Source: Salinivirgaceae bacterium
GTDB taxonomy: Bacteria; Bacteroidota; Bacteroidia; Bacteroidales; SZUA-534
Assembly (NCBI GenBank): GCA_016284875.1
Contig: JAEEPS010000009.1
Coordinates: forward strand, 287 to 64,286
Direction of reading: 5' to 3'
DNA: 64,000 nucleotides
Below, piece after piece: positions 2,130-6,231 of this stretch. Positions within the stretch are counted from its first letter, which is position 1. Every line of letters begins with the position of its first letter. A program made the translations under genes and the position numbers. The notes under the pieces were generated by a model, which was not told where the DNA came from, did not search any database, and worked only from the letters and a program-made list of their open reading frames with translations.

Positions 2130-2144
2130 TTTTCAAAATACAAT

Positions 2145-2174
2145 AAAAAAGCCACCAAAAAGGTGGCTTTTTTT
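2145..2174. terminator. Bidirectional intrinsic terminator
   Basis: aaaaaagccacc-aaaaa-ggtggcttttttt hairpin with A/T tracts, between convergent genes. Confidence 0.85.
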
Positions 2175-2252
2175 GTATTTTCAATTCACTATAACTTGAT
2201 ATGCGACGTTTTCTACACAATAGATGTGAATTTTGATTGACTTACAAGCATT

Positions 2253-2972
2253 TTACTCATTATCAATTGGCGCAGGTACCAAAGTGTAACTTTCTAAATG
2301 TTCGTGATTTTCTGTTTTGTAAAAGTAATACACGAATACCTTATTGCTGCGATGCACTTCATCATTACAAACAAACATTAATTCATCATCGTAACGACCT
2401 TCAATCTCGTATAACACAGAAGGTTTATCTGTGTTATAATATAATGGTTGCAATGACGGGTAACAGATAAATTTTATCTTGCTGCACGAATTGAGGCGGT
2501 CTGCTATTCTGGCAGTATCAGTAATTCTGTTACGAATGTTAAAAGTGGTAGCCACATTTGTCGCTTTGACAGTTCGTATTATCTGATTGTTGTCAGTTAT
2601 CGTAAATGTTTCTTCGCTGTTGATTTTTTCCTTGTATGGATACCAACACCAAGTAGTGTCTACTATAGTTTCCCTAATACCCCAATCAACGTAAAAACCT
2701 CCCAACTCTTCGTCATATACATTTGTCAGTTTATAGTCAACGAAATTATAACTAGACAAAGCACCTGTGGGCCACCATTGATTTATCAAAACATCAGGAT
2801 ACAATTGGATTGTATCATAGACAACTATTGTGTTGTATTTCACATCGTAACTGTTTCGTTCAAGAATGTTGTACGTAACAGTTTTCTGTTCATTTTCCTC
2901 GTTTGGTGAGGTGCAACCTTCAATGACAAAAGCACTGGCAATTGCAATTGAAAAAAGAATTAAATTTCTCAT
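2253..2972 (-). CDS. Hypothetical lipoprotein (AT-rich cargo gene)
   Basis: 239-aa ORF, signal peptide with lipobox-like IEGC; visibly AT-rich; no family recognised. Confidence 0.65.
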   Translation of the reverse strand: MRNLILFSIAIASAFVIEGCTSPNEENEQKTVTYNILERNSYDVKYNTIVVYDTIQLYPDVLINQWWPTGALSSYNFVDYKLTNVYDEELGGFYVDWGIRETIVDTTWCWYPYKEKINSEETFTITDNNQIIRTVKATNVATTFNIRNRITDTARIADRLNSCSKIKFICYPSLQPLYYNTDKPSVLYEIEGRYDDELMFVCNDEVHRSNKVFVYYFYKTENHEHLESYTLVPAPIDNE

Positions 2973-3001
2973 TTATTAAAGTTTAAATTGTTTTATGAAA
3001 T

Positions 3002-3817
3002 TTATTTATCCCATTCTATCATAGTTACTGGCATATTTGGCCGATTCCATTTGAGGTGTAAATCTTTGGTTAACTTATTTTTGAAGGTATAAAGAGAAGA
3101 CTTGTCTATTTTATCTTTGCTGATGTTCAAAGAGTTAACCAAGTAATCTGTAAATTCTTCTTGTTGGTCAGAAGTCAATCGTGGGTCAAGGAAGAATCTG
3201 TCAAATATATAATCGGTATCTATGTCAAATTCAATATGTTCGTATGATTCCGCGTCGTTATTGTCAACACAAACAATAATGCGGTATTCATTCTCGTGAG
3301 CATACGCCCATCTTTTCACAAATAATGATTTGATTAAATGGTCTTTTTCGGGTTCGTTTAGCCATTTTTTAAAACTTTTTGGCCCCATATATTTGACTTT
3401 TCCCATATAAGCATACTTCTCACATTCTATGTCGGAGATAGGTTTATTTATGGCCTCTTTTAGTTTTGGTATTGTTGTTTTTACTTTTATTGCAGTGTCT
3501 TGCAAATTGTTGATAGACAGCCCTTCTAACGGCATTTTAGAATAAATCCTCCACATAGCATCCGAACTTTGATTAAATGTCCACGACTGTCCGTAAACAA
3601 TAGATTTTTTCAGTGTCGAATCAGGTTTATACAAAGAGTTAAATACACAATTCTCGTACACATCCCCGTCTTTCTCTACCACCCGTTCCCAACTTTCTGT
3701 ACGATTCAATCTTAACCTTTTGTGGGTTAGAATTAACTGCAAGTGTTTCCATTTGAAGAACTTATATATATATTCCTCATTATTTTGTTTCTGGCTTGAT
3801 AGTTCTGAATTGCCCAT
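3002..3817 (-). CDS. DUF2971-like protein
   Basis: 271-aa AT-rich ORF with the family pattern YIYKF...SWT...SDAMWRIYS...KVKY...KRWAYAHENEYRII. Confidence 0.7.
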   Translation of the reverse strand: MGNSELSSQKQNNEEYIYKFFKWKHLQLILTHKRLRLNRTESWERVVEKDGDVYENCVFNSLYKPDSTLKKSIVYGQSWTFNQSSDAMWRIYSKMPLEGLSINNLQDTAIKVKTTIPKLKEAINKPISDIECEKYAYMGKVKYMGPKSFKKWLNEPEKDHLIKSLFVKRWAYAHENEYRIIVCVDNNDAESYEHIEFDIDTDYIFDRFFLDPRLTSDQQEEFTDYLVNSLNISKDKIDKSSLYTFKNKLTKDLHLKWNRPNMPVTMIEWDK

Positions 3818-3884
3818 AACAAGAACCCTCCATTCCAGCCGATTCCCATTACTGGCTTAAATATTTAACTTGATTATTTGGCAT

Positions 3885-4195
3885 AAAAAAACGTGGGAAT
3901 CTGTTACTCGCTCCCACGATTCGCGGCCTTCGCATTGCCTTTGCTGTAAGATTGAGCAACGCGAAACCCACGCGGTTGATATGAATGATGCCAAAACGCT
4001 AACAAGTAGGCATAAAAAGCCACACTCATAGCGGTTTGCATTCATTTGCATAACCAACGTAGGCGCTCACCATTGCTTCTCTCTTTGACAGCAAATTCAA
4101 AAGTTGCGAAGTTTCGAATCGTCAAAGGAAAACGTCAGTAAACGTCTTTCAATATGTCAAGTCAGCATCTCACTCATTTGTAGAGAGGAGTGCAG
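3885..4195 (-). ncRNA. Putative structured RNA / long structured 5' leader ending in a terminator-like hairpin
   Basis: Several stems whose G-U pairs work only on the minus strand: 3892-3898/3912-3918 followed by U7; 3922-3938/3956-3972 (16 of 17 pairs); 3974-3991/4038-4055; 4062-4071/4137-4146 enclosing 4083-4089/4121-4127 and 4094-4102/4112-4120. Promoter -7 box immediately upstream. Confidence 0.6.
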
Positions 4196-4201
4196 ACAAA
4201 A

Positions 4202-4209
4202 CAAAAGTA
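4202..4209 (-). promoter_or_regulatory. Bacteroidota sigma-A -7 box for the structured element
   Basis: Minus strand reads TACTTTTG, matching TAnnTTTG. Confidence 0.6.
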
Positions 4210-4265
4210 CAAATGTTCAGTGTGAAATGAAAATGTTTTTTAGAGAGTAGGATAAAATAGAGAAT

Positions 4266-4862
4266 TTATTCCTCCACAATTTGTTCAGCCCATTCGGGAA
4301 GGGTTTGAACATATCGTTTTGCCACATTGCCATCGGCAAATCTAATCAGCAGCGTGGCTTCGGTGTTTTCGGCAGTGTTGTCGTAAAGATATACGCGATT
4401 AACCTTTTTCGCTATATATCTGCAATTTGAGATTGATTTTTGATAACGTGATATGATTTTTGGAATAGGCACATCGTGTCCGCCGTTCATCACTCTGTTT
4501 GCAATACGCGACGCATTGATGGCTGGCGATGCGGTGCAGACAAAAAACAATCGCACAAAGAAACCTGCCGCCAATGCTCTTTCTATATAGTTAATCTTGT
4601 CGTCGGCCGACAGAACGGTCTCAAAAATCAGGCTTTTCTTTTCTAAAAGGCATTTCTCGCGCCACTCTTCGCAGTATTTAATCGATTTCAGCACAGCATC
4701 TTCCGAATTCCAATCGCCAAAACGCTCCTGCGCAACAATGTCGGGGTTGATATACACGGAATTCTCCAACCACTCGTGATGCAGGATGCGGCTCGTCACA
4801 GAAGTTTTTCCCGACCCGTTCGGCCCTGCAACAACTATCAGCACTGGCTTTTTATCCGACAT
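4266..4862 (-). CDS. Zeta-toxin family P-loop ATPase/kinase
   Basis: AGPNGSGKTS Walker A, YINPD, FETVLS, RVMNGGHDVP and YLYDNT motifs of the short zeta-toxin family. Confidence 0.85.
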   Translation of the reverse strand: MSDKKPVLIVVAGPNGSGKTSVTSRILHHEWLENSVYINPDIVAQERFGDWNSEDAVLKSIKYCEEWREKCLLEKKSLIFETVLSADDKINYIERALAAGFFVRLFFVCTASPAINASRIANRVMNGGHDVPIPKIISRYQKSISNCRYIAKKVNRVYLYDNTAENTEATLLIRFADGNVAKRYVQTLPEWAEQIVEE

Positions 4863-5038
4863 TGTTTACCGTATTTCTTGTTGTATATCTCGCGAATCTC
4901 GTCGAAATATCTCCGCAGAGCCGCTTCGTTGCTTTTGCGGGCTTCTTCGGCGGCCTCACGCATAATGTACGACAACATCTCGTCAGTCGGTTCCTCCATA
5001 CTTGTCAGTCTGTATTTATTCACTTCCGCTTCCGACAT
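4838..5038 (-). CDS. Small helical protein, probable antitoxin of the zeta-like toxin
   Basis: 66 aa with EEPTDEMLSYIMREAAEEAR; directly upstream of the toxin ORF and overlapping it by 25 nt. Confidence 0.65.
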   Translation of the reverse strand: MSEAEVNKYRLTSMEEPTDEMLSYIMREAAEEARKSNEAALRRYFDEIREIYNKKYGKQCRIKSQC

Positions 5039-5113
5039 ATCTCACTGTTTTTGTTTGTATTACATTCAATTGTATGCTTCCTTGCGCCCAATCATCATAA
5101 ACACATAGCAAGA

Positions 5114-5121
5114 CAAAAGTA
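5114..5121 (-). promoter_or_regulatory. -7 promoter box for the TA pair
   Basis: Minus strand TACTTTTG about 75 nt upstream of the antitoxin start. Confidence 0.55.
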
Positions 5122-5181
5122 TAAAAAGTAGGTTTGAAAAGGAAAATGTTTTTTGAAACGAAATTCCTCGCAATCCGTTTT

Positions 5182-6231
5182 CTAAACAGATTTTATTCTT
5201 ACAAGCCCCACATTCCCAATCATTTCCTTGCTCTCGCTCAAGCCCGAAATGACAGGCGCCTTCACGCCGCCGCCCAAAACCACAGGGCTTTTGAAAATCA
5301 GCGCTTCGTCCCACAATCCAGCATTGATGAACGATTGCAGCAAGCGCGTGCCGCCTTCAACAATCAGTTGGTTGATTTGCGCGTCGTACAGCCGCTGCAT
5401 TAGCGCGGGCAGCATTGCGTCGCCCCACGGCAGCAGAACGTTTTGCAGATTTCCGGTGTCGTCGTTGTTAATTGTGTTCAACCGCCACGTTGGCTGACTG
5501 CGGTCGAAAATATGCAGATTGCCAGGCAGTTGCAGCGCACGGTCGGTAACAATTCGTAGCGGGTCGCGGCCAGTCCACGCACGAACGTTGAGTTGCGGAT
5601 TGTCGAGCAGCGCGGTGTTGTAGCCCACCATTATTGCGCCCGATTCGGCCCGCCAGCGGTGAACCAGCGCGCGGCAGGCGTCGTTGGTGAGCCACACGGG
5701 GCGGTTGTTCTCGGGCGAGCGCTCGCCGTCGATGAATCCGTCGGCCGATTCGGCCCATTTCAGAATCACATACGGGCGTTTTTTTGTGTGAAAAGTGATG
5801 AAAGCGCGGTTCAACTGTCGGCATTCGTCTTCCAGAACGCCAACTTTCACATTGCAGCCCGCCGCCCGCAATTTATTGATTCCGTTGCCGTTAACCTTCC
5901 CGAAAGGGTCAACCATACCAACCACTACGTTTGGAATTTTGCGGCTGATAATCAGGTCAGCGCAAGGTGGCGTTTTGCCGTAATGGCTGCACGGCTCAAG
6001 GCTTACGTAAATGGTTGAGCGGCAGAGCAATTCGGGATTTTTGACGGCTGCAATGGCGTTCACTTCGGCGTGCGCTTCGCCGCAGCGGTGGTGGTAGCCT
6101 TCGCCGATAATCGCGCCGTCGCACACCACAACCGCGCCCACCATTGGGTTCGGGGCGGCCGTCCCAGCGCCCAGCGCGGCCAGTTGCAGGCACCGCCGCA
6201 TAAAAAATTCGTCGTTCACTTGCTCGTTCAT
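5182..6231 (-). CDS. ribD: Bifunctional riboflavin biosynthesis deaminase/reductase RibD
   Basis: NPMVGAV, HAEVNAI, SLEPCSHYGKTPPC zinc motifs; LKWAESADG and VEGG reductase motifs. Confidence 0.97.
   Translation of the reverse strand: MNEQVNDEFFMRRCLQLAALGAGTAAPNPMVGAVVVCDGAIIGEGYHHRCGEAHAEVNAIAAVKNPELLCRSTIYVSLEPCSHYGKTPPCADLIISRKIPNVVVGMVDPFGKVNGNGINKLRAAGCNVKVGVLEDECRQLNRAFITFHTKKRPYVILKWAESADGFIDGERSPENNRPVWLTNDACRALVHRWRAESGAIMVGYNTALLDNPQLNVRAWTGRDPLRIVTDRALQLPGNLHIFDRSQPTWRLNTINNDDTGNLQNVLLPWGDAMLPALMQRLYDAQINQLIVEGGTRLLQSFINAGLWDEALIFKSPVVLGGGVKAPVISGLSESKEMIGNVGLVRIKSV

Follow-up and report, generated by a model that had tools for sequence, protein, structure and literature searches.

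The window analyzed here, by which we mean the whole stretch of 64,000 nucleotides (nt) of a Salinivirgaceae bacterium (contig JAEEPS010000009.1), carries on its minus strand, at positions 3885 to 4193, an element that specifies an RNA of ∼300 nt with a promoter box, a rod-like long-range fold, and an intrinsic terminator. This RNA belongs to a family that is real, strand-specific, covarying, and absent from Rfam. We consider it probable that the element is a new cis-acting transcription attenuator at the head of exchangeable accessory cassettes, and we infer that it switches between alternative pairings during transcription. A preliminary description, made from the sequence alone, had proposed either a stand-alone noncoding RNA (ncRNA) or an attenuator, a reading that is supported by the data below; the attenuator option has gained because a putative antiterminator covaries with the 5′ strand of the terminator and because the next open reading frames (ORFs) share its strand, with no promoter box in between.

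A strand-specific, covarying RNA family

The minus strand of 3880 to 4215 folds to −122.4 kcal/mol (z −6.2 against dinucleotide shuffles), and the plus strand to −94 kcal/mol (z −3.7). A covariance model of the rod only (R1; 168 positions, 48 pairs) scored 140 to 176 bits in the sense orientation and 22 to 28 bits in antisense at the same four places, in agreement with the earlier suggestion that the fold belongs to one strand. Twenty-two copies were aligned with MAFFT without the use of a covariance model (alignment A1) and folded with RNAalifold, which yielded 52 pairs making up a 5′ hairpin (P0), a hairpin termed P0b, and a long-range rod in which 4062 to 4122 pair with 3916 to 3970 around a tip of variable length (all features are listed in Table 1). 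In A1, 96.3% of the alignment cells were paired, compared with 37 to 42% when the partner was slid by 1 to 3 columns; two-sided changes occurred at 24 of the 52 pairs (138 cells), and the covariation score of 0.384 (versus 0.05 to 0.07) was reached by 0 of 500 shuffles. P0, which the preliminary description had already recognized, showed two-sided changes at all four of its pairs in the 22 copies, its pairing being conserved and its sequence variable. A second alignment (A7) comprised 79 copies from named Bacteroidales records of other genera, aligned to the model, a procedure that favors the model; among the matches listed, 94.3% of its cells pair and 33 of the 48 pairs show compensatory changes, so that covariation is strong in both sets. 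All four Watson-Crick types are present in P1 and P3 of A7, and no variation is seen in the core of P2 (UCGCA:UGCGA), in part of P4, or in the internal loops.

The conserved fold departs from the five local hairpins into which the preliminary description had divided the element. The nested domain placed at 4062 to 4146 retains some support as an alternative local fold, but its strands belong to the conserved rod, and the long irregular hairpin at 3974 to 4055 is the tip of the rod, which measures ∼30 to 110 nt in the alignments of other copies. A stem of 16 or 17 base pairs (bp) rich in G-U pairs, at 3922 to 3972, is likewise built from rod strands; it does fold in the window (17 bp, −25.3 kcal/mol) but is not conserved. 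Across 29 homologues, 76% of its cells are paired, and 46 of 500 shuffles did equally well.

The proposed −7 box of the Bacteroidetes type, TACTTTTG, was recovered, its exact pattern TAnnTTTG being present in 44 of 56 distinct homologous upstream regions; transcription would start near 4192 to 4196. A generic promoter scan returned sigma-70-type matches only at chance level. The region spanning GACAUAU and P0b (4129 to 4158) is near-invariant over the 22 copies, with 100% pairing and a single compensatory change from A-U to G-C, and P0b is also present in other genera, where its stems are changed. At the 3′ end stands the predicted terminator, CGUGGGA/UCCCACG at 3892 to 3918 followed by U7, with a GC-rich stem of 7 bp and a hairpin energy of −11.8 kcal/mol in the window copy. 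It is kept at the sequence level in 22/22 copies of A1, and a U-run of at least four was found in 71 of the 79 broad-set copies among the matches listed. The output of a generic terminator scan lacked it, because its loop exceeds the loop limit of that scan (3 to 8 nt). Past the terminator, the leader motif UGGGAAUCG (genus consensus GGGGAGUCG) is located 21 to 40 nt beyond the U-run in 27 of 29 distinct genus copies, often with GUUGCGCACGACACG after it; it is infrequent outside the genus. In the window's genome it also follows the other two copies (C16 and C122), and two more exact matches of TGGGGAGTCG (C89 and C97) lie remote from any copy.

As had been asked of the element, homologues were sought and proved abundant, both in the genus and in other Bacteroidales. 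BLAST with a query of 336 nt against 15 other genomes of the genus gave matches in 13, with up to 12 per genome, and outlined two conserved arms (query positions 57 to 163 and 243 to 333) around a variable middle; the window's own genome holds three copies. R1 matched 1 to 14 times per genome in all 15 of these genomes and 6 times in one related genus and found no match in 16 genomes from six further genera placed in the same group as the window's genus; in an order-wide sample of 151 genomes, 14 were positive. Its weaker matches (∼131 to 137 nt and ∼202 nt) are subfamilies of the same layout, namely, promoter box, 5′ hairpin, ACAUA, small hairpin, rod, and terminator. An exact-pattern scan of a species-representative genome collection returned at least 120 stretches, with 80 loci among the matches listed; R1 matched 79 of these 80 loci at E values of ≤2.7e-13 (77 over the full model and 2 clipped at the end of the locus). 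The record titles among the matches listed name Prevotella, Paraprevotella, Hallella, Bacteroides, Phocaeicola, Parabacteroides, Muribaculaceae, Paludibacteraceae, Porphyromonadaceae, Alistipes, and Salinivirgaceae; Prevotella ihumii Marseille-P3385 and Hallella faecis CLA-AA-H145 are among the records so named. Full-length copies were also seen in bins labeled Oribacterium sp. and uncultured Firmicutes (L105 and L128), probably through binning error and possibly through transfer. Collections of plasmids and phages held no match to the element. Copies are scattered over contigs and solitary, save for one tandem pair, in which two RNA copies lie ∼350 nt apart on the same strand (G007:C167:2617-2819 and 3170-3355; L017/L045/L059).

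No characterized family of Rfam covers the element. With Rfam 15 (4,227 models), the whole window gave 0 matches at the gathering threshold, and 3600 to 4500 searched at E ≤ 10 gave four chance-level matches only (E values of 5.6 to 8.1), no T-box among them. Eleven loci of the weaker subfamilies likewise gave none, and for 18 loci with other-genus homologues the sole match was an abiF RNA, unrelated to the element and located elsewhere in its locus. This abiF motif (RF03085, 47.8 bits; L102:1254-1290) lies ∼260 nt from a leader copy in a Prevotella ihumii record. The available portions of the literature, including those of PMC5737381 and PMC8040213, do not describe the element, although supplementary motif lists may hold the motif under a code name; the accessible part of 10.64898/2026.10.21.760802 names no matching element, and a term search of that of 10.1101/2024.04.05.588293 was negative. 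As far as these searches reach, the family is new in terms of size, multicopy use, and the link to defense and surface cassettes in Bacteroidales. A leader with a terminator and an antiterminator is in itself an already known kind.

Alternative pairings, downstream genes, and cargo exchange

In the attenuator reading, the TACTTTTG promoter would start a leader RNA of ∼300 nt with two global folds open to it, each of which excludes the other. In the first, P0b would form and the 5′ and 3′ halves would build the rod (P1 to P5 and the variable tip), leaving the CGUGGGA...UCCCACG hairpin and U7 to stop transcription at 3885. In the second, segment X (the 3′ strand of P0b plus linker) would pair with segment Y (the distal 5′ strand of the rod) and thereby release segment a, which would then pair with segment a′ (the 5′ strand of the terminator plus part of the loop) as an antiterminator, so that polymerase could read into the cargo, here a PDC-S31 candidate and a lipoprotein-like gene. 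The exclusive pairings would thus form a chain, P0b / X:Y / Y:a / a:a′ / terminator, and X:Y could form before a is transcribed. Candidates for what sets the switch would be the speed of RNA polymerase or a protein or ligand that acts at either the invariant P0b hairpin or the loops of the rod. Promoter and leader together would make a portable module that heads defense, type IX secretion system (T9SS) or leucine-rich repeat (LRR) surface, and small helix-turn-helix (HTH)-like cassettes at many loci.

The a:a′ helix is taken as the antiterminator because it sequesters the 5′ strand of the terminator. In the window the duplex consists of 7 bp, a 2×2 loop, and 6 bp, and in other-genus copies the helix reaches 11 to 14 contiguous bp; both segments are changed in the divergent subfamilies, with complementarity retained. 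Over 29 distinct copies, mean RNAduplex energies were −16.3 kcal/mol for cognate pairs, −13.2 kcal/mol for noncognate pairs, and −9.5 ± 2.8 kcal/mol with shuffled a′, and 0 of 20,000 permutations did as well as the cognate pairing. The most divergent copies stood at or near the top of the cognate ranking (L069, 1/29 in both directions; L074, 2/29). In the broad set the corresponding means (−18.3 cognate versus −17.7) are uninformative, because the search pattern fixed strand a. For X:Y, tested in the same way over 53 distinct copies, the means were −17.6 for cognate, −13.2 for noncognate, and −9.5 for shuffled pairs, again with 0 of 20,000 permutations. The GGC:GCC pairing covaries as well (CG in 43 and UA in 7 of 57 rows); by our reasoning on loop lengths, this hairpin would be incompatible with P2 as an ordinary helix, and a second conformer is therefore indicated. 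Two further pairings were tried and rejected. GGGGAGUC matches the 3′ strand of the terminator perfectly in the window (GGGAAUC/GAUUCCC) but, judged by eye, is uncompensated where the terminator reads AGAAUCCC. A hairpin UUCGAAA:UUUUGAA in the 5′ half has two two-sided pairs only, with 82.6 to 87.5% of the cells paired, and was kept merely within the X:Y fold.

For the genes that follow, we counted a same-strand ORF of ≥55 amino acids (aa) starting ≤300 nt after the U-run, setting aside copies with less than 300 nt of downstream DNA or without a run of four U (12 each in the genus and broad sets); between U-run and ORF only the consensus box TAnnTTTG was sought, so that other promoters are possible. 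In the genus, 45 distinct copies could be evaluated; such an ORF follows 44 of them, starting (as in the broad set) at a median of 65 nt past the U-run, and the box intervenes in 1 of the 44. The broad set, among the matches listed, has a same-strand ORF after 64 of 67 evaluable copies, with the box in between in 2 of the 64.

The first gene downstream in the window had been labeled DUF2971-like, a label that was not borne out: Pfam gave no DUF2971 for its 271-aa product at E ≤ 1, and the match is instead to PADLOC PDC-S31 (E value of 5.5e-49; residues 3 to 250 on profile positions 3 to 241 of 245). PDC-S31 is a candidate defense system, which makes this gene a phage-defense candidate by sequence. 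The protein matches no NCBIfam family and no Pfam family at E ≤ 0.1; at E ≤ 1, Pfam returned just DUF7014 and crAss_CARG1 (E values of 0.15 to 0.22). Elsewhere in the genus, the first downstream genes encode BspA-type LRR_5 proteins in 4 of 10 cases scanned, with a T9SS sorting-domain protein, a Big_2 protein, an InlB B-repeat protein, and a type III methyltransferase among the others. Among the matches listed, Pfam detected, in the 67 other-genus first ORFs, LRR_8 (5), LRR_5 (4), Big_2 (3), and DUF6175, N6_N4_Mtase, and GT2 (2 each), with DUF4007, Pkinase, FHA, and others as singletons, and PADLOC added MTase_III (2) and SspB, PD-T4-6, and mad6 (1 each). Small HTH-like ORFs recur downstream of copies, and toxin-antitoxin (TA) modules are frequent among the neighbors. 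A family of small ORFs (∼68 to 93 aa) was also seen directly past the U-run, in first-gene position, in several genera (L009, L025, L030, L032, L112, L114, L130, L143, and L167), with the pattern …HIG..I…R(S/T)..W(L/F)A..L.C.R.N(V/M/I)Y.IF…; one member (L086:952-1230) had no Pfam match at E ≤ 1.

The preliminary description had further supposed that the element might form the conserved start of a defense or cargo locus of variable content, and this holds: the genes downstream are diverse, and at this locus the cargo is swapped after the promoter or, in one relative, after the terminator. In five close relatives the flanks of the locus are 94 to 98% identical. In G003, G013, G011, and G014, homology extends from the 349-aa gene through the zeta pair and ends at the promoter box (∼4202), and in G010 it ends ∼20 nt upstream of the box. 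It resumes in G003, G013, G010, and G011 at the terminator of the 689-aa gene (∼2131 to 2156), the contig of G014 stopping before the right junction; this right break falls within the hairpin of the terminator, which is shared with the convergent 689-aa gene. The exchanged segment measures 2,046 nt in the window versus 3,082 to 4,617 nt in the relatives, where it holds BlaR/BlaI-like genes, LRR proteins, or another rod-like RNA with an HTH-like ORF. G002, by comparison, keeps the RNA at 90% identity and diverges exactly after the U-run; its cargo (L082:1468-5464) comprises a gene resembling S-adenosylmethionine methyltransferases, a UvrD/GajB-like helicase, and a 701-aa protein without match in Pfam or PADLOC, a three-gene set that looks like an undescribed defense-type operon. 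The stretch from ∼2131 to 4202 of the window is a cargo hotspot.

In G011 and G014 (L086:640-950 and L087:1160-1380), what comes after the shared promoter is a rod-like stretch of another kind, with a U-run at its end, and then a small HTH-like ORF. These stretches have no R1 match and may be a second leader family.

RNA data came from assembled contigs of animal-gut metatranscriptomes (four runs; the habitat labels rest on small word shares and are used loosely), which reveal neither ends, strand, nor read-through and in which uncovered stretches count as no evidence. Parts of the element and of the neighboring genes are present in these RNA libraries. One contig of 168 nt lies entirely within the element (3925 to 4089, 1 difference), and a contig of 4,211 nt from a relative covers 3387 to 5200.

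Competing explanations and known systems

Several observations weigh against an attenuator. The pair counts for X:Y in A1 (90.4% paired, the covariation score matched by 2 of 500 shuffles) are biased, since the helix was taken from the window sequence itself. In the main family the alternative helices are 94.5% paired with 3 two-sided pairs, and 134 of 500 shuffles are equally good; being almost invariant, these helices lend compatibility, not covariation. Energies calculated for the window copy at the decision point put the rod state at −112.1 and the antiterminator state at −91.4 kcal/mol, and because the rod is favored by ∼20 kcal/mol in this model, read-through would require a kinetic route or a factor, none having been found here. 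Pairing of a with a′ alongside P1 to P3 is a long-range pseudoknot, so that the whole rod must be absent in the second fold. The terminator with its U7 is strong, and most transcripts may end there as free RNA. The RNA evidence, limited to metatranscriptome contigs, is blind to ends and read-through. Finally, the cargo is very heterogeneous and therefore suggests no single physiological signal.

It is worth asking whether the RNA acts on its own, as a trans-acting or protein-binding ncRNA of ∼300 nt with a constitutive terminator, the cargo being expressed by leak-through or from unrecognized promoters and the alternative pairings being incidental or folding intermediates. The element's own promoter box and U7 terminator would suit this, as would a rod that is far more stable than the alternative fold and that combines invariant internal loops with hypervariable stems, as protein-binding RNAs do; its multicopy nature recalls some small-RNA families, and the 168-nt contig lies wholly inside it. 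We nevertheless regard this as rather unlikely, given that the downstream ORFs share the strand of the element, at a short and constant spacing and with no promoter box before them, that the 5′ strand and loop of the terminator covary with an upstream strand, which a plain terminator would not need, and that a conserved leader motif lies past the terminator in the genus. Neither role excludes the other, as an attenuator can also release a functional RNA. A leader that recruits a NusG paralogue of the UpxY/LoaP/RfaH kind, or that modifies polymerase like the put and EAR RNAs, would in turn explain why the element precedes AT-rich accessory or horizontally exchanged genes and contains a terminator; the invariant loops could bind the factor, and the resemblance to JUMPStart/ops, LoaP leaders, and UpxY 5′ untranslated regions (UTRs) is suggestive by analogy. 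This processive antitermination is in our view improbable: no factor gene is linked to the copies, whose flanking genes vary (no search was aimed at a NusG paralogue), and the covarying antiterminator already accounts for read-through without a processive factor. A T-box leader was rejected, as Rfam gave no T-box match at E ≤ 10 and the downstream genes are of the defense, surface, and HTH types.

That the element works as DNA, as a miniature inverted-repeat transposable element (MITE) or an attC-like recombination site that moves cassettes, with the fold as a by-product of inverted repeats, seems very unlikely. Its multicopy, rod-like build with a variable center, the sharp junctions of cassette exchange at the locus, and the frequent TA neighbors are what such an element might present, yet the stems carry compensatory changes (24/52 and 33/48 pairs) and many G-U pairs around invariant loops, antisense scores are low (22 to 28 versus 140 to 176 bits), and promoter box and U-run keep fixed places; the junctions fall at the promoter or the U-run, not at inverted-repeat ends, and neither the plasmid nor the phage collection held a match. 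A MITE was rejected on the low antisense scores and compensatory pairs, and an integron attC array because copies are scattered and solitary rather than arrayed, one tandem pair apart, and no integrase appears among the neighboring first ORFs (no systematic integrase search was made). Conservation owing to an overlapping ORF of 66 aa (3857 to 4057, minus strand), a possibility raised at the outset, has a negligible chance of being correct. The ORF does exist in the window, but it is not conserved: the longest sense ORFs vary among the 22 copies in where they start, in frame, and in length (29 to 68 aa), its start lies in the variable tip, a region that many copies have in a much shorter form, and it has no protein-family match.

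The attenuator reading also admits a wider form, which we offer tentatively. The RNA could be a new class of effector-sensing switch, a portable gatekeeper of horizontally exchanged cassettes across Bacteroidales, with one conserved sensor that reports a cell-wide signal. The sensor would be the invariant P0b hairpin together with the rod loops, acting through the five-segment relay, and the signal might consist in a dedicated RNA-binding protein, in a nucleotide messenger, or in the state of polymerase under phage attack or stress. Such a gatekeeper might coordinate up to a dozen defense systems, T9SS adhesins, and small regulators per genome, and the hypervariable P1 and P3 stems would prevent cross-pairing of paralogous transcripts.

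Relays of anti-antiterminator, antiterminator, and terminator are known from protein-dependent attenuators such as the pyr leaders, which respond to PyrR, and the trp leader, which responds to TRAP. PMC1865079 describes another transcription attenuator that depends on a protein, the infC leader of Bacillus subtilis with L20. Like such protein-dependent attenuators, the element would place a leader of ∼200 to 300 nt between promoter and first gene, with an intrinsic terminator, an exclusive antiterminator that shares the 5′ strand of the terminator, and an upstream conserved structure that chooses which of them forms. Unlike them, it is found in Bacteroidales and bears no sequence or Rfam relation to them, its decision structure is a long rod spanning the whole leader, and it is multicopy and heads unrelated accessory genes instead of one metabolic or ribosomal operon. 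With riboswitches that use terminator platforms it shares a structured, covarying leader and a putative competition between terminator and antiterminator, and some riboswitch classes are also multicopy per genome; it differs in its rod-like shape with a variable tip, in lacking an evident ligand pocket, and in downstream genes without a metabolic theme. Specialized antitermination leaders comprise JUMPStart/ops with RfaH, the LoaP leaders, the UpxY-dependent 5′ UTRs of Bacteroides, and the EAR and put RNAs. These resemble the element as conserved leaders before horizontally acquired, surface, or accessory operons with termination within the leader, whereas the element has a covarying antiterminator of its own and no linked NusG paralogue was seen (none was searched for); it is also much larger than ops and put. 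Integron attC sites and Correia and ERIC sequences form hairpins that are multicopy and strand biased, keep their ends but vary in the center, and lie beside exchangeable promoterless cassettes. The element is likewise multicopy, hairpin forming, and adjacent to exchangeable cassettes, but it has a promoter, a terminator, and G-U-rich RNA pairing with compensatory changes, and it lacks arrays, inverted-repeat ends at the junctions, and, short of a systematic search, an integrase.

If the element is a regulated attenuator, it would be a large, widespread, and uncatalogued cis-regulatory RNA of Bacteroidales, a dominant order in the gut and rumen, and would control phage-resistance and surface-variation genes (defense candidates, type III methylases, SspB, and BspA-LRR/T9SS proteins). 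Accessory cassettes would then come with, or slot behind, a ready-made module of promoter plus switch, which would bear on the exchange and silencing-until-needed of defense islands and on surface-protein repertoires. The covariance model can serve as an annotation marker for such cassettes.

Neighboring genes and the surrounding island

The element is hosted by a low-GC island (∼2130 to 5180) flanked by the 689-aa gene and by the 349-aa gene, the latter read as ribD from its sequence. As stated in the preliminary description, the element is richer in GC than the genes downstream (0.447 at 3901 to 4200 versus 0.31 to 0.37 at 2251 to 3750). The second cargo gene encodes a 239-aa protein that has no match in Pfam, NCBIfam, or PADLOC and that, in our own reading, has a lipoprotein-like N terminus (…ASAFVIEGC).

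Table 1. Features of the element and its surroundings, by position in the window
Feature	Position	Strand	Description or basis
689-aa gene	60-2129	plus	Convergent
Second cargo gene, 239 aa	2253-2972	minus	ORF list
First cargo gene, 271 aa	3002-3817	minus	Candidate phage-defense gene, PADLOC PDC-S31
Post-terminator leader motif UGGGAAUCG	3840-3848	minus	Genus consensus GGGGAGUCG
Intrinsic terminator	3885-3918	minus	CGUGGGA 3912-3918, loop 3899-3911, UCCCACG 3892-3898, U7 3885-3891
Segment a′ GUGGGAGCGAGUAAC	3903-3917	minus	5′ strand of terminator and first part of loop; complements segment a
Rod 3′ strands	3916-3970	minus	P3 3940-3947, P2 3928-3934, P1 3916-3923
GGC / GCC	3937-3939 / 3925-3927	minus	Mutually pairing, covarying
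Segment a GUUGCUCAAUCUUAC	3946-3960	minus	3′ strand of distal rod
Apical tip of rod	3971-4061	minus	Length and sequence variable
Rod 5′ strands	4062-4122	minus	P1 4114-4122, P2 4105-4111, P3 4088-4094, P4 4067-4077, P5 4062-4063
Segment Y	4066-4089	minus	Inside rod 5′ strands; partner of segment a in the rod
Segment X ACGUUUUCCUUUGAC	4121-4135	minus	3′ strand of P0b and linker; alternative partner is segment Y
P0b hairpin	4129-4148	minus	AAGACGU 4142-4148, loop UUACUG 4136-4141, ACGUUUU 4129-4135
Conserved GACAUAU	4152-4158	minus	Sequence
P0, 5′ hairpin	∼4165-4193	minus	Minimum free energy folds; pairing conserved, sequence variable
Conserved promoter region	4197-4244	minus	Upstream block kept among copies
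−7 box TACTTTTG, Bacteroidetes type	4202-4209	minus	Sequence
Zeta-toxin-like ATPase gene	4266-4862	minus	Pfam Zeta_toxin, 4e-13
66-aa ORF overlapping the zeta-toxin-like gene	4838-5038		
349-aa gene	5182-6231	minus	ribD-like by sequence

The promoter region is duplicated in the window, the two versions (4197 to 4244 and 5109 to 5156; 71% identity) bracketing the zeta pair. In RNA-library contigs of a relative, 4158 is joined to 5099, and the zeta pair is missing from the join.

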